A stretch of 64,000 nt of DNA from Acidobacteriota bacterium (GTDB lineage Bacteria; Acidobacteriota; UBA6911; RPQK01; JAJDTT01): positions 2,656,001 to 2,720,000 of the forward strand of contig CBDCJH010000002.1 in the NCBI GenBank assembly GCA_965217775.1. Reading direction: 5' to 3'. The number at the start of each line of letters is the position of its first letter. Position 1 is the first letter of the stretch. Of the stretch, positions 15,615 through 46,661 are shown one piece after another. The notes beneath the pieces are model-generated. The model worked only from the letters and a program-made list of their open reading frames with translations. It was not told the origin of the DNA and did no database searches. A program made the translations under genes and the position numbers.

Positions 15615-15691
15615 CAGGTCTCTCCTTTCATCTGTTCGGCTTGGGCTCTCAGCGCCACCGTGCGAAGTCACGAGCTGCCGGCGCCCGCCCT

Positions 15692-15855
15692 TAACAGCCC
15701 GGGGCAAAAGTCGTCACGGCATTCGACCGTCCCTGCATCCCGGCGGACTGCGTTGCTATCGGCTCACATACTCCCGGTATGCTCCCTCAACGCGCCTTGT
15801 CCGGCGGGCGCAGGAACGGTCTCGGTGCTCGCGGGACTTTCACCACGGACTGTTA
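15692..15855. mobile_element. Non-autonomous MITE-like element, family M1, copy 1
   Basis: Imperfect TIRs TAACAGCCCGGGGCAAAAGTC ... GACTTTCACCACGGACTGTTA with TTAA at both ends. A near-identical inverted copy lies at 43939-44103. Confidence 0.75.
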
Positions 15856-42276: not shown

Positions 42277-43007
42277 TCGCCGCCCTCTTCCTGCTTCTCC
42301 CCGTAGACGTGGCGGCTGAAGATCTCACGGATCTCGGCGGCGCTGCCCGCCGCCTGCAACTGTGCCATTCGCGACTCCTCTTCCTGCTGCATGGCCCGGA
42401 CGTTCATCAGCACCGCATCAAGCTTTTCCGCGGGGAACTTGCAGGCGCCGTTTTCGTCCATGTGGATGATCTCGCCGGGCGAAACGTCCATGCCCGCCAC
42501 CGTCACCGGCACGTTGACGGCGTGGAGGGCCGTGGGACCGTGGCCGGGAGTGGCTCCGCTGAGCAGATACTGGAATTTCATGGGACGGATCTCGTCCAGA
42601 TCTCGGGACGGACCGTTGGAGATGGCCGCCACGCAGCCGATGGCCTTGAGGGCGGAGGTCATGTTGCCTCCCGACAGGCCCACCTTGCCGGCGATCTCGG
42701 GCGGGAAATTCTGCTGGAAGACCAGGACCGTGGGCTGCTCCGACGCCTCCATGGCCTCCAGCACGTCGATGAAGGTCAGTTGCTTGTAGTTGGGATCGGG
42801 GAGCCCGAAGATGCAGGTGACGGCGTAACCCACGGTCCGCCCCAATTCGGGATACATGCATCGGATGGACTGGTCCGTGTACCAGTTCGTGGACCAGGGA
42901 TTGTAGAGCCCCAGGCACAAGGGATGGTCGGGATAGGTGGCCACCACGTTGGTGATGGAGGGGGTGTCGAAGTTCTTGAGTTCTTCCAGCATTTCAGATC
43001 GGTTCAT
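42273..43007 (-). CDS. RraA / HMG aldolase family protein
   Basis: FDTPSITN, VGYAVT, SRDLDE, PGEIIHMDENG. Confidence 0.88.
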   Translation of the reverse strand: MNRSEMLEELKNFDTPSITNVVATYPDHPLCLGLYNPWSTNWYTDQSIRCMYPELGRTVGYAVTCIFGLPDPNYKQLTFIDVLEAMEASEQPTVLVFQQNFPPEIAGKVGLSGGNMTSALKAIGCVAAISNGPSRDLDEIRPMKFQYLLSGATPGHGPTALHAVNVPVTVAGMDVSPGEIIHMDENGACKFPAEKLDAVLMNVRAMQQEEESRMAQLQAAGSAAEIREIFSRHVYGEKQEEGGE

Positions 43008-43192
43008 GTCCTGTTCCTTTCGCGCCCTTCGATTCCGGGTCCGCTGCCGATAGCGGGGCCGGGTCCATATCATCACAGATGAACCGGGTTGTTGGAAGTG
43101 CCGGGAGCGGCCCCGAGTTGTAGACTGAGTGTGAGGGATCCGGTCCCTCGGGGGAACACGCGTCGCAACCGGGTGCAACGGGGGGGAGTCCC

Positions 43193-43939
43193 ATGGAGAT
43201 CGTTCGAGAGAAGGACAAGGCCACCATGAGTCAAGCCGCCGCCGCCAGGGCCTCAACCAAACTGCGGGAAGCCATCGACCGGCAGGGGACCGCCAGATTC
43301 TGCGTGGCCACGGGCAGCTCGCAGTTCGACTTCCTGGCGGCGCTGACCGCGGACCGATCGATCGACTGGTCCCGGACGACCCTGTTCCACCTCGACGAAT
43401 ACACCGGGATCTCCGAGACCCACCCCGCCAGCTTCCGCCGCTATCTCCGGGAGCGCCTGGTGGACCGGGTGCATCCGGGAGAGGTCCACTTCATCCGGGG
43501 CGAGGCGCCCGACCCTCAGGCCGAGTGCCATCGGATCTCAGGCCTCATCCAAGAGGGCCCGATCGACGTCGCCTTCATCGGCATCGGAGAGAACGGGCAC
43601 CTGGCCTTCAACGATCCACCCGCCGATTTCGAAACCGAGGAGCCCTATATCCTGGTCACCCTGGACGCCGCCTGCCGGCGGCAGCAGGTCTCCGAGGGGT
43701 GGTTCGCCAGCATCGACAAGGTGCCGGTCCAGGCGGTCTCCATGTCCATCCGCCAGATCCTGAAGGCCGAGTCCATCGTCTGCACCGTTCCCGGCATCCG
43801 CAAAGCGGAGGCGGTCCGCAATTGCGTGGAAGGCGAGATCACACCCCTGCACCCCTCGTCCATAATGAGGACCCACTCCGATTGCCGCCTGTATCTGGAC
43901 CGGGATTCCGCCTCACTCCTGGGAACTGCCTCCGGCTGA
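43193..43939 (+). CDS. nagB: Glucosamine-6-phosphate deaminase family protein
   Basis: ATGSSQ, FHLDEY, GIGENGHLAFNDPP, KAEAV, PSSIM. Confidence 0.85.
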   Translation: MEIVREKDKATMSQAAAARASTKLREAIDRQGTARFCVATGSSQFDFLAALTADRSIDWSRTTLFHLDEYTGISETHPASFRRYLRERLVDRVHPGEVHFIRGEAPDPQAECHRISGLIQEGPIDVAFIGIGENGHLAFNDPPADFETEEPYILVTLDAACRRQQVSEGWFASIDKVPVQAVSMSIRQILKAESIVCTVPGIRKAEAVRNCVEGEITPLHPSSIMRTHSDCRLYLDRDSASLLGTASG

Positions 43940-44103
43940 ACAGTCCGTGGTGAAAGTCGCGCGAGCACCGAGACCGTTCCTGCGCCCGCCGGACAAGGCG
44001 CTTCAGAGGGAGCATACCGGGAGTATGTGAGCCGATAGCAACGCAGTCCGCACACGATGCAGGGACGGTCAAATGCCGTGACGACTTTTGCCACGGGCTG
44101 TGA
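43939..44103. mobile_element. MITE-like element, family M1, copy 2 (inverted relative to 15692-15855)
   Basis: AACAGTCCGTGGTGAAAGTC ... GACTTTTGCCACGGGCTGTG; near-identical internal sequence; begins at the nagB stop codon. Confidence 0.75.
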
Positions 44104-44348
44104 AGGTCCCGAGTCTGCAATAACCTTCACCACGGGCCATCCGCTAGAATGGATCGCAGGTCCGAGTAAATCGCTGGTTCCGACTGGACAGCCGGAGAAT
44201 CGATTGCAGATTCTTGAACTCCTTCGTTACTTGGTATGTAGGCAAGGATTGACGGGACGCCTGCCGGGAGTCGGGACAAAACCCGAGGTCGAAGATTCGC
44301 GACTCCAAATCGACGTTCGGAGAAGGCTTGAAGCGCCTCCGTCACCGG

Positions 44349-44834
44349 ATGGAGAAGGAACCAGTGAGGTACAGAGAGTCGATTTGGAGCGTCCCGGCGA
44401 CATGGCGGGACGCCTACTTCAAACTTTTTGTGGCTCTCGTTATAGTGACCACGGCTCTGGTCGTCTGGCACGAGGTGGCCAGTGGGACGACGGACGGCAA
44501 CCTGGAGACGTTCCTCGCCATCGCGCGAGGGCTGTCTCCCGTGGTCGTCGTGGTCGCTGCCTGGAGCGTGGTTTCCGTGGAGGTGGGAAGAATGTTTTCG
44601 GAATGGTATCTGAATCGACGTTACGCCAAGGGACGTGCCAAGGGGCGTGCCGAGGGGCGTGCCGAGGGACGTACCCAGGGGCGTGCCGAGGGACGTACCC
44701 AGGGGCGTGCCAGAGAGCGCAAGCGCTGGGAATCCTGGAACCGCGCGCGCATAGCCGCCGAGGAACAAGGAAACAGTTTCACCGAGCTACCTCCGGCGGC
44801 CGCTGACGATCATCAGACCGGTGAGCGCGCGTGA
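44349..44834 (+). CDS. Hypothetical membrane protein: two hydrophobic helices plus a C-terminal (GRxx)7 tetrad-repeat tail
   Basis: YFKLFVALVIVTTALVVW and LSPVVVVVAAWSVVSV; 12-bp repeats at about 44631-44714; in-frame internal GGAGGT-N7-ATG at 44592. Confidence 0.75.
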   Translation: MEKEPVRYRESIWSVPATWRDAYFKLFVALVIVTTALVVWHEVASGTTDGNLETFLAIARGLSPVVVVVAAWSVVSVEVGRMFSEWYLNRRYAKGRAKGRAEGRAEGRTQGRAEGRTQGRARERKRWESWNRARIAAEEQGNSFTELPPAAADDHQTGERA

Positions 44835-44942
44835 AAGATTCGCCGGATCCTGACTGGCCCCGAAATTCGGACGGGGGAGGATAGGCCGTCGGCAGTTTCC
44901 AGTCTTTCGCTTGAAATTTGGAAATTCTTAAGGGTGGGAAGA

Positions 44943-45137
44943 ATGTTTTCGGAATGGTATCTGAATCGACGTTACGCCAAGGGGCGTGCCGAGGGACGTG
45001 CCCAGGGGCGTGCCAGAGAGCGCAAGCGCTGGGAATCCTGGAACCGCGCGCGCTTGGCCGCCGAGGAACAAGGAAAAAGTTTCACCGAGCTACCTCCGGC
45101 AGCCGCTGACGATCATCAGACCGGTGAGCGCGCGTGA
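44943..45137 (+). CDS. Small protein matching the tail of 44349-44834, with 3 GRxx units
   Basis: MFSEWYLNRRYAKGRAEGRAQGRARERKRWESWNRARLAAEEQGKSFTELPP. Confidence 0.65.
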   Translation: MFSEWYLNRRYAKGRAEGRAQGRARERKRWESWNRARLAAEEQGKSFTELPPAAADDHQTGERA

Positions 45138-45238
45138 AAGATTCGTCAGATCCTGACTGAACCCGAAATTCGGACAGAGGAGGATAGGCTGCCGGCTGAA
45201 TCCAGTCTTCCGTTTGCAATTTCTTAAGGGCGCGAAAA

Positions 45239-45445
45239 ATGTTTTCGGAATGGTATCTCAATCGTCGTTACGCCAAGGGGCTTGCTGAGGGACGTTCTGA
45301 GGGGCGGGCTGAGGGGCGGGCAAGAGAGCGCGAACGCTGGAAAACCTGGAACCGCCTCCGAATGGAGGCCGAGGAACAGGGCAAGAGGTTCACCGAGCCG
45401 CCTCCGGCAGCCGTTGACGATCGGCTGCCCGGAGAACTCACCTGA
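45239..45445 (+). CDS. Third, more diverged small tail protein with 4 tetrad units
   Basis: MFSEWYLNRRYAKGLAEGRSEGRAEGRARERERWKTWNRLRMEAEEQGKRFTEPPP; synonymous changes preserve the frame. Confidence 0.7.
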   Translation: MFSEWYLNRRYAKGLAEGRSEGRAEGRARERERWKTWNRLRMEAEEQGKRFTEPPPAAVDDRLPGELT

Positions 45446-45510
45446 AACCGGAATACGGAGAACGAACGACCGCAAGACCGGTTGCATTCAAACCAGGACG
45501 ATTTGAAACC

Positions 45511-45533
45511 CCGGTGAGCCTTCCCCTCACCGG
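45511..45533. terminator. Hairpin between convergent genes, possible terminator
   Basis: CCGGTGAG-CCTTCCC-CTCACCGG; only a weak U-tract on the minus strand. Confidence 0.3.
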
Positions 45534-45557
45534 CCGGCGCGGGTGTGGTTTATGGCG

Positions 45558-46661
45558 TTACGCGATCCTGAGCCGGACCCAGCGGTTGTGGGTGACGGAT
45601 TCGACGGTGCACCAGAAGTAGACCAGTAGATCTCCGTCCGGGAGCAGAATTCCCCAGGGCCGGCCGAAGGCGATCTTCTGGTGGGCGTCGATGAACTCGT
45701 CCACCGCTTTCGCCGTCATGGTTTCCTCGCCGGCCCGAAACACCACGGCCTGATTTTCGACGTCGTAGTTCTCCAGATCCTCGGTGATCGCGACGTGGAT
45801 TCCCTGGGGTTCGCGGCGAAAATTGTAGATGGCCGCCACCCGGCCGTCGGGTAGCGCGATGGGGGCACAGAGCTGCCCCTGCAAGTTGGTGGGACGAGGC
45901 TTGCTCCAGGTCCGGCCGGCGTCCGCTGAAACCACCCAGTGGTCGTTGACGTCCTCTCCCTGCCCCACACCCCAGGTCCGGGTCCAGAGGGTGGTGTAGA
46001 TCCGTCCATCCGGCAACACGGACTGCATCTGGTCGGCGTAGTGGAGGCGCTCCTCCGGATCGTCGGCCACCACCGACCACTCGTCCCAGGTCTGTCCCTG
46101 ATCCGATGAGAAGACGGCCCCCGCCTTCTGGTCCACCGGCCCCTCGTAGCCGTCCGGCTTCCAAGTCTCGAACGGATACATCCAGCGGTCGGGCGCGAGA
46201 ATCAGGAGCTGACCCGAAAGGCTGCTCACGTATTTCTCGGGAGGCAGCGGGTTGGGCACCACCTCGGGTCCCGACCAGGACCGGCCCTGATCGGACGAGC
46301 GGAAGAGGACCATCTGTGTCGGCTTCAATCCCTCGGTGGCCGGATTGTACATCTCGTCGTTGTCCAGGAGATAACGGGCGGCCGCCATCACCAGGCTGCC
46401 ATCCTCCAGAGGAGCGATCATGGGCGCCCGGTAGCACCATCCATCCGCCGGGAGACCGCCGTGGATGCTTCCTTCGTTGGTCCAAATGCGGCCCCCGTCG
46501 GTGGAGCGCAACACCTCGATGTGGTTGTCCGGAGAGCACAAGCCGCTCCCGACGTGCTGCGCCGCCAGCAGCGACCCGCCCTGGAGTGGCCTCACGCAGG
46601 GAAAGTAGGCGCCGCGCCCAGGAACGTGAGAGAGAATTCCTCGGTCCACGATTTCGAGCAT
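45558..46661 (-). CDS. BNR/Asp-box sialidase-family protein without a signal peptide
   Basis: STDGGRIW, SSDQGRSW, SSDQGQTW, SADAGRTW. Confidence 0.82.
   Translation of the reverse strand: MLEIVDRGILSHVPGRGAYFPCVRPLQGGSLLAAQHVGSGLCSPDNHIEVLRSTDGGRIWTNEGSIHGGLPADGWCYRAPMIAPLEDGSLVMAAARYLLDNDEMYNPATEGLKPTQMVLFRSSDQGRSWSGPEVVPNPLPPEKYVSSLSGQLLILAPDRWMYPFETWKPDGYEGPVDQKAGAVFSSDQGQTWDEWSVVADDPEERLHYADQMQSVLPDGRIYTTLWTRTWGVGQGEDVNDHWVVSADAGRTWSKPRPTNLQGQLCAPIALPDGRVAAIYNFRREPQGIHVAITEDLENYDVENQAVVFRAGEETMTAKAVDEFIDAHQKIAFGRPWGILLPDGDLLVYFWCTVESVTHNRWVRLRIA

Follow-up and report, generated by a model that had tools for sequence, protein, structure and literature searches.

Introduction

A detachable tail, that is a C-terminal protein part that also exists on its own, has until now been known only from the Rpn nuclease toxin-antitoxin system. 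According to its published description (Zhong et al. 2023, PMC10400941), the rpn gene contains an internal start at which translation of the small protein RpnS begins, and the Met at the junction is conserved together with an upstream Shine-Dalgarno-like (SD-like) site. RpnS contains four-residue repeats, which begin 8-20 residues after this Met, vary in number among strains and lie in the first, long helix of a bundle of three helices that forms the dimer interface. The addition of one repeat to one of the Rpn partners abolishes neutralisation (PMC10400941). Downstream of some rpn genes lies another copy of the tail in a gene of its own (rpnSs, e.g. ypaA), and this copy can disappear through deletion or by becoming fused to the N-terminal domain (PMC10400941). 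Whether antitoxins that are hidden in toxin genes and tuned by repeats are a one-off or a general device is a question raised by this work (commentary in PMC10400984). Here, we analyse a stretch of 64,000 nucleotides from the genome of an Acidobacteriota bacterium (contig CBDCJH010000002.1, positions 2,656,001 to 2,720,000, forward strand), hereafter the window, in which a gene for a two-helix membrane protein with a repeat tail (the long gene) is followed by two stand-alone genes coding for the tail alone (copies 2 and 3, the short genes).

The long protein belongs to a large undescribed family of small membrane proteins, and its tail is most likely also made by translation from a conserved Met, preceded by an SD-like site, after the second helix, as we infer from comparisons across the family. 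Literature searches, in which subscription journals were outside coverage, returned no published membrane protein with Rpn-like tails. In an earlier note on this DNA, made from the sequence alone, the architecture was not recognised as described.

The long gene and its stand-alone tails

The earlier note had read the open reading frame (ORF) 44349-44834 as two hydrophobic helices followed by a repeat tail, and both hydropathy and an AlphaFold2 model support this. We could also confirm the in-frame ATG at position 44592 with a GGAGGT 7 nt upstream, and that the genes starting at 44943 and 45239 open at the same Met and encode only the tail (Table 1). Copies 2 and 3 both begin with MFSEWYLNRRYAKG, identical to the long protein from residue 82 on, and the first 14 tail residues are common to all three genes. 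In the long protein, the tail runs from MFSEWYLNRRYAK through seven four-residue units to ERKRWESWNRARIAAEEQGNSFTELPP and ends after 12 further residues. Arrays of 12 nt were detected by Tandem Repeats Finder at 44625-44712 (7.3 copies), 44976-45015 (3.3 copies) and 45284-45321 (3.2 copies), and read in codons these correspond to 7, 3 and 4 four-residue units in the long gene, copy 2 and copy 3, respectively.

In the DNA, a tandem unit of ~350 bp is present in three copies, one for each tail; it starts ~13 nt before the ATG and takes in ~105 nt past the stop codon. No second locus for the tail was found in the 6.4-Mb genome, where the next matches had E >= 0.32. Copy 2 arose by recent duplication and has the same tail type as the long gene itself (90/95 in the tail tree), and copy 3 is an older 'short-type' tail, which is also found in short genes elsewhere in the genus, in other species. 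The start codon of the long gene is ATG in eight of nine genus genomes and GTG in the remaining one; it is the sole start candidate kept across the genus, and no SD-like sequence is found in the 18 nt preceding it. An alternative start in the genome of the window is a TTG at position 44328, which would give a protein of 168 residues and has GGAGAAGG upstream.

A start-like signal at the junction of membrane part and tail

Within the long ORFs of the same genome, a GGAGG ending 5-11 nt upstream is found at 246 of 19,676 internal in-frame ATGs (1.25%) and, with the same placement, at 296 of 2,816 first ATGs (10.5%), the latter being a crude proxy for true starts. By this comparison, the site at ATG 44592 is about eight times more start-like than an ordinary internal Met. 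A pattern search for the 3' end of the 16S rRNA in the genome gave no match that would confirm the anti-SD sequence.

The junction Met itself is widely kept. Of 62 aligned cluster representatives that extend further upstream than the tail, 47 have Met in the junction columns, and any other column contains Met in at most 10 of the 62. By eye, several of the 15 exceptions have a Met one residue off, or Val, Ile or Leu at the junction. At least 41 of 83 further representatives begin at the residue aligned to the junction Met and consist of the tail only. These tail-only starts span several subfamilies (MLAERYL, MVTARYL, MSLYHVIVNRF, MFLTQWYL and MVLSEWY), and for each of these there are long counterparts in which helix 2 is followed by the same residues. 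Whether such entries are real genes or starts called within longer ones, either way they point to a start-like signal at the junction.

Six distant metagenome loci, with one long gene each and no stand-alone tail (0/6), were used to follow the junction at the nucleotide level. The junction codon is ATG in four of them, GTG in one and ATA in one. All six have an SD-like site 4-8 nt upstream of this codon, which is GGAGG in five loci and GAGGGGGG in one. In two of the six, the residues encoded at the pentamer are different ones (W-R-N-G and G-G-G-A), and in the remaining loci it follows from the conserved E-[GV] and codons ending in G. With six sequences, the conservation of the SD-like site over these distant loci is suggestive. 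The earlier note had made its proposal dependent on an internal ribosome-binding site and Met being conserved in homologs; the Met is kept in most representatives, and an SD-like site, largely encoded by conserved residues, is present in all six loci.

Stand-alone tails across the genus

For the comparison within the genus, the window was set beside eight relatives (L010-L017), giving nine genomes. The long gene is found at the same place, between genes for NagB-like and BNR proteins, in all nine genomes, and one or two short genes lie directly downstream of it in six of them. The long and short genes contain, respectively, 7 and 3 and 4 units in the window, 4 and 3 in L010, 4 and 5 in L011, 5 and 4 in L012, 6 and 4 in L016, and 6 and 5 in L017; L013, L014 and L015 have long genes with 4, 3 and 4 units and no short gene. 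In every short gene, the frame is open and begins with ATG, and this codon is preceded at 8-10 nt by AAGGG or GAGGT.

The ratio of non-synonymous to synonymous differences (pN/pS) in the non-repeat core of 47 codons is 0.20 for the short genes (n=7, 21 pairs) and 0.27 for the long-gene tails (n=9), with 0.23 for the membrane part, where the pairs compared are not independent of each other. Judged by these values, the short genes are under purifying selection and maintained as genes, which speaks against the view, considered in the earlier note, that copies 2 and 3 are duplication debris. Two distinct C-terminal tail types persist across species. Outside the genus, the long and short proteins P0154 and P0144 come from contigs equal in size (30,263 bp), as do P0390 and P0391 (3,968,852 bp), and in both pairs the short protein begins at the junction Met of its long partner. 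From this, we infer that the long and short genes are adjacent in these two other subfamilies as well.

Repeat variation and tail exchange

Relatives of the short genes in the databases are 60, 64, 68 or 72 residues long and thus differ in steps of whole units, apart from one of 63 residues with a longer N-terminus. Across the genus, the number of units ranges from 3 to 7. Proteins whose membrane part is identical to that of the window carry 9 units (P0023), 7 units (the window and P0024) or 3 units (P0035), and P0035 consists of the membrane part of the window and the tail of copy 2.

In a tree of the 141-nt core of 16 tails, long and short labels are interleaved and 6 changes are needed to explain their distribution. 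Copy 3 of the window groups with the long-gene tail of L013 (97/95), and the tail of the L015 long gene falls together with the short genes found in L016 and L017 (95/92). Short genes are missing in three genomes, among them L013 and L015. For copy 2, the grouping is with tails of long genes, namely those of the window, L010 and L011 (90/95). These groupings indicate at least two events in which a tail was fused to the membrane part and at least one duplication of a tail. Unusual units are common to the long and short genes within a genome, namely GHAE in L011 and GSAR in L012. Between the long and short genes of one genome, the first 39 nt are 87-100% identical and the 3' core 74-96%, and this greater likeness of the 5' end suggests that conversion takes place there.

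Family size, consensus and predicted structure

A search with the long protein retrieved 208 relatives at E <= 0.01 (proteins of 88-282 residues), down to ~30% identity over ~90% of the length. The tail profile matched 388 representatives of 50%-identity clusters, which have 54-287 residues among the 150 listed, and 1293 proteins of at least 138 residues in a 90%-identity collection. Among the 120 of these 1293 proteins that were listed, the only Pfam domains were Yae1_N (4 proteins) and PF24792 (1 protein), and only two members were named, both as hypothetical proteins of Chloroflexota metagenome-assembled genomes. Neighbours in the ESM Atlas are clusters without names, in which Chloroflexota is the commonest phylum. 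No family model in Pfam, NCBIfam, PADLOC or PHROGs fits; for six family members, PHROGs gave only matches at E >= 0.02 and PADLOC none.

The family consensus consists of RESIWSV, helix 1, helix 2 ending in E-[GV], M-[LV]-[AS]-E-[RK]-Y-L-x-R-R-Y and (G-R-A-E)n, followed by W-x-x-W-N-x-R-R-x-x-A-E-x-x-G-E-x-F-x-E-P-P-P. The tail can be divided into three parts: a basic amphipathic start (M-x-x-E-x-Y-L-x-R-R-Y), the repeat helix and a conserved end (W-x-x-W-N-x-R-R-x-x-A-E-x-x-G-x-x-F-x-E-P-P-P). The long tails of the window, L010 and L011 and copy 2 have F-T-E/K-L-P-P at this end (44784-44801 and 45087-45104 in the window). The near-invariant form of the family is F-x-E-P-P-P, with P in 60, 55 and 59 of ~62 sequences in the three columns, and it is kept by the short-type tails.

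Some proteins contain tails fused head to tail: a strict motif count gives at least 5 among 143 representatives, and a few more can be seen by eye. P0300 (296 residues) has two tails followed by an unrelated domain of ~170 residues. P0312 and P0335 resemble a long gene that is read through into a second tail unit, beginning again from the E-V-G-N before the junction, and P0333 and P0336 have a second, degenerate F-N-E-P-H-P motif at their end.

In a sample of 301 genomes of the phylum, some match was found in 16. The whole model was matched in 6 genomes only, all of them from the genus of the window, and the other 10 gave repeat-only matches. A Pfam search with 12 ORFs that match in the repeats only assigned 5 to the Rpn type (DUF4351, Transposase_31 or PDDEXK_2) and 4 to the Uma2 type, 3 of which are above the gathering score, and found no family for 3. 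One acidobacterial ORF of 351 residues without a Pfam family (L032:868-1920(+)) contains K-R-R-M-E-A-Q-Q-K-G-Q-P-F-D-E-P-M-P, which is similar to the end of the tail; it has neither repeats nor membrane helices, and the likeness may be due to chance.

By hydropathy and charge count, the loop between the two membrane helices of the long protein contains no K or R and has a net charge of -3, and the tail of 84 residues contains 19 K and R. Both termini should thus be located in the cytoplasm. AlphaFold2 (38-row alignment) predicts helices at residues 17-44 and 51-139 of the long protein (mean pLDDT 69.5), so that helix 2 and the tail would form one continuous rod. The short protein is predicted as a single helix (residues 3-47) followed by an extended end (mean pLDDT 62). 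A Foldseek search with the long model against the Protein Data Bank (PDB) gave no match at E <= 0.001, and the tail profile gave no match to PDB sequences at E <= 10. A prediction of the complex of the long protein and short copy 3 scored 0.01 (mark 0.32) in a run without controls, and we draw nothing from this score.

Genomic context and expression

The features of the locus are listed in Table 1. Neighbouring genes in the window code for phosphoenolpyruvate carboxykinase, ThuA, NHL, 3-keto-disaccharide hydrolase, RraA-like, NagB-like, BNR, DUF3604 and Gfo/Idh/MocA proteins and an aldo-keto reductase, and the neighbours at the distant loci are unrelated metabolic genes. No defence or mobile-element gene was found among 12 neighbours in the window or 15 ORFs at the six distant loci, which is a small sample. 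The locus is syntenic in all eight relatives and not patchy within the genus. A tblastn search of the long protein against plasmid and phage collections gave no match, none of 37 pattern matches in IMG/VR was confirmed, and Rfam gave no match at E <= 1 over 43000-46500.

Table 1. Features of the long gene and the stand-alone tail genes in the window.
Feature	Coordinates	Strand	Details
Long gene	44349..44834	+	161 residues from ATG; cytoplasmic N-terminus (predicted; RESIWSV motif), two membrane helices, tail
Membrane helix 1, residues 24-40	44418..44468	+	Hydropathy; AlphaFold2 helix 17-44
Membrane helix 2, residues 55-77	44511..44579	+	Hydropathy; AlphaFold2; ends in conserved E-[GV] codons that spell the SD-like GGAGG
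Internal SD-like GGAGGT	44579..44584	+	7-nt spacer to in-frame ATG 44592
Putative internal tail-only product	44592..44834	+	80 residues, 7 repeat units; candidate start
Seven-unit array in long gene	44631..44714	+	GRAK GRAE GRAE GRTQ GRAE GRTQ GRAR; Tandem Repeats Finder, codon reading
Spacer after long gene	44835..44942	+	Homologous to spacer after copy 2; part of ~350-bp tandem unit
Stand-alone tail gene, copy 2	44943..45137	+	64 residues; 3 units at 44982-45017; C-terminus ELPPAAADDHQTGERA
Spacer after copy 2	45138..45238	+	DNA comparison
Stand-alone tail gene, copy 3	45239..45445	+	68 residues; 4 units at 45278-45325; EPPPAAVDDR... end

A scan for promoters and terminators gave 2 and 3 consensus matches, respectively, none of which is placed such that it informs on separate transcription of the short genes. 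In four RNA libraries, which are labelled as sponge metagenome, contigs with 99-100% identity cover 44173-44682 (the long gene), 45041-45222 and 45137-45293 (the end of copy 2, the spacer and the start of copy 3) and 45318-45536 (the end of copy 3), at a depth of 2-13 that is similar to the neighbouring gene. No contig of these four libraries covers ~44815-44997, which carries no weight.

The region between the long gene and the NagB-like gene contains a hairpin element of ~160 nt (window 43940-44100 (+)), and another copy is present at 15689-15854 (-). At least 40 copies with 91-97% identity are found in the genome, 40 of 300 candidates having been scored. The element folds as one long hairpin (-87.4 kcal/mol, z = -6.9), is missing from the same intergenic region in all eight relatives and has a summed RNA contig depth of ~1000 in the four libraries, with many different flanks, vs ~5 for genes. 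It looks like a miniature inverted-repeat transposable element (MITE).

Discussion

We propose, with a probability of roughly 0.45, that the long and short proteins of this locus constitute a module in which tails pair with each other on a membrane protein. In analogy to Rpn, the stand-alone genes beside the long gene would supply the tail as a separate protein, and an internal start at the junction Met would supply further free tail. The free tails would pair with the tail of the anchored form along the repeat helix, and this pairing would set or block the assembly or activity of the membrane form. The number of repeats would fix the register of pairing, as it does for RpnL and RpnS. As the comparison of relatives shows, unequal recombination between tail copies creates, deletes and swaps tails, and through such exchanges the membrane form acquires another number of repeats and another type of tail. 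For the membrane part, the simplest guess is that it might have a pore or membrane-perturbing activity, which would be checked by the tail.

Several observations weigh against this proposal. The stand-alone tails are missing in three of the nine genus genomes and in all six distant loci and are hence not essential to the family. In addition, the repeat numbers of the resident long and short tails differ in all six genomes that have both (7 pairs), and under the rule described for Rpn this argues against a pairing of resident long and short tails. With regard to the internal start, the GGAGG results largely from the conserved E-[GV] and a GC-rich codon choice, two causes of conservation that six distant sequences cannot separate from selection for a start, and the retention of the junction Met could have structural reasons. 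The tail-only proteins in the databases could in part be long genes whose start was called internally, or cut genes; adjacency of long and tail-only genes was checked in the DNA within the genus of the window only. Lastly, the RNA coverage is a weak hint that the array is transcribed, for which carry-over of DNA is a possible explanation, and it is silent on where translation starts.

The proposal has to be weighed against three other explanations. In the one closest to the earlier note, the locus is a self-contained toxin-antitoxin or anti-phage module, in which the long form is toxic through depolarising or permeabilising the membrane, the internal tail is its antitoxin and the stand-alone tails serve as extra or variant antitoxins. 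All Rpn-like features, namely the junction Met, variable repeats, free tails and fusions, are indeed present, and the lack of a conserved partner gene in any of 15 loci suggests that the module is self-contained. Such a role might also account for the faster evolution of the long protein, which is 76-86% identical between relatives vs 87-96% for its NagB-like, BNR and DUF3604 neighbours, for its patchiness at higher rank, with a full-length match in only 6 of the 301 phylum genomes and named relatives in the Chloroflexota, and for the presence of the same kind of repeats on nucleases of other Acidobacteriota. We nevertheless regard a toxin-antitoxin module as unlikely, as PADLOC and PHROGs recognise none of the six family members searched, neither the 12 window neighbours nor the 15 ORFs at the distant loci include a defence or mobile gene, plasmid, phage and IMG/VR matches are lacking, and the position of the locus is fixed in the eight relatives. 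Moreover, the free tails never equal the resident long tail in repeat number. Since a mismatch of one repeat abolishes neutralisation in Rpn, the idea that the additional copies are spare antitoxins meets with difficulty, and the stand-alone copies fit exchangeable cassettes at least as well.

One might go further and see in the stand-alone tails nothing but a reservoir of DNA donors for recombination, by which the tail of the membrane protein is changed and in which the products of the short genes have no role of their own. The swaps and fusions in two species and one strain variant, the recent duplication, the signs of conversion in the first 39 nt and the unusual units shared within a genome would all be expected from such a reservoir. 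However, a DNA donor has no need of the purifying selection that is seen in the short genes, nor does it explain why every one of them has kept its ATG, SD-like AAGGG or GAGGT and open frame, why short and long tail types stay distinct across species, or why other members of the family are fused proteins with several tails. We therefore consider it improbable that the copies act as donors only. Even less credence is due to the explanation that there is nothing special about the locus, that is a low-complexity tail, copies made by unequal crossing-over and a Met that happens to be favoured at a membrane boundary. The tandem unit is structured as expected from simple unequal crossing-over, short genes are missing from many of the genomes and loci compared, and the SD-like site is mostly encoded by conserved residues. 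On the other hand, this explanation leaves open why the short genes are under purifying selection, why pairs of a long and a short form are met with again and again, in at least three subfamilies with only 30-45% identity to each other, why Met is found at one boundary column far above any other, and why the GGAGG is kept where the amino acids differ.

Our proposal of a tail-pairing module could be extended, and we consider this extension doubtful, to the repeat tail with its internal start being a portable control device on harmful effectors, which would be attached to Rpn nucleases, Uma2-type nucleases and a membrane hairpin, the latter representing a widespread, Chloroflexota-centred, membrane-acting counterpart of Rpn. 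If this were true, the internal tail would restrain a pore-forming long form, and the number of repeats would serve as a lock for which slippage and swapping with the neighbouring tail cassettes provide new keys. The family described here would be the first case of the Rpn-like anatomy, by which we mean the internal start, hypervariable four-residue repeats, stand-alone copies and tail fusions, on a membrane-embedded protein that is not a nuclease and has an unrelated tail end. Assigning a function would cover a sizeable block of hypothetical proteins (the 1293 of at least 138 residues), and it could show whether proteins pair by matching repeat numbers as a general rule. Should the module have no role in defence, it still provides a compact example of a C-terminus that is exchanged among tandem cassettes.

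Comparison with known systems

Runs of G-x-x-x in a helix are also found in FliH/YscL and Yae1_N (PF09811), and weak matches to these proteins are restricted to the repeats. A relation to FliH/YscL was rejected: the best NCBIfam FliH match, which is confined to the repeat region, has 27.2 bits compared to a cut-off of 180 bits, and neither a FliH C-terminal domain nor a flagellar context is present. Phage holins and antiholins are made from dual starts, differ by a few N-terminal residues and are both membrane proteins with opposing roles. The long protein resembles holins in its small size, its two membrane helices and its charged C-terminus, predicted to be in the cytoplasm. A holin-type dual start was rejected, as no phage, IMG/VR or PHROGs match was found, the second start lies after both membrane helices and there is no lysis cassette.

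Orphan C-terminal cassettes of cdiA-CT and rhs genes, and silent pilS copies, are partial copies downstream of a main gene with a conserved 5' block, through which recombination replaces the C-terminus encoded by the main gene. The tails described here are likewise partial downstream copies with a common 5' block. In contrast to these cassettes, they have a start and SD-like site of their own and appear to be selected as proteins, and neither a delivery domain nor an immunity gene is present.

Rpn-like tails on nucleases of other Acidobacteriota provide a further comparison. The Rpn-type ORFs have a Met 3-17 residues before repeats of the G-R-Q-E type. In two of them with DUF4351 and Transposase_31 domains (L025:1291-1623(-) and L029:1516-1785(+)), the Met lies 11-13 residues before G-R-Q-E and is preceded 6-8 nt upstream by GGGAG or AAGGAG, as expected for internal RpnS starts. 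Four putative nucleases of the Uma2 family (PF05685; L024:1327-2367(-), L031:1339-2466(-), L045:1336-2370(-) and L042:1336-2427(-)) have C-terminal G-R-A-E units followed by ~60 residues, and two of the four have a Met 7-12 residues before the first G-x-x-x run. The tails of these proteins represent the Rpn-like design of a hypervariable tail on a second nuclease family.

The family described here differs from Rpn in its N-terminal part, which is a two-helix membrane hairpin and not a PD-(D/E)XK nuclease. A Pfam scan of the long protein at E <= 10 gave no Transposase_31, PDDEXK_2, other nuclease or DUF4351 match, and the same scan does detect nuclease domains in the Rpn-type ORFs of other Acidobacteriota. 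The repeats are followed by a W..WN..EPPP motif instead of a three-helix bundle of the DUF4351 type, and in an hhalign comparison of the tail family with six Rpn tails only 7 repeat columns align. Furthermore, no defence genes are found nearby and there is no patchiness within the genus, although the sample is small. Membership of the Rpn family was rejected on the grounds that there is no nuclease domain, that the alignment is limited to the 7 repeat columns and that the short tail is predicted as one helix. The earlier note had suggested that the two-helix part takes the place of the PD-(D/E)XK nuclease as an effector. The replacement itself agrees with the two helices and the lack of a nuclease domain, whereas a function as effector or in defence finds no support in the metabolic neighbours, the PADLOC search or the fixed synteny.

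In its architecture, the locus is nevertheless close to Rpn. A C-terminal tail also exists alone, here as downstream genes and probably, from the sequence around the junction, through an internal start. The repeats begin 13 residues after the junction Met (tail residue 14), which falls within the 8-20 residues given for Rpn; they are predicted to lie in a long helix, and their number varies among near-identical strains. As with rpnSs, the downstream tail genes are optional and can be lost by fusion, here in L013, L015 and P0035. The architectural parallel with Rpn drawn in the earlier note therefore holds, and with the Met, the SD-like site, the repeats, the free tails and the fusions it is stronger than the sequence alone had shown.

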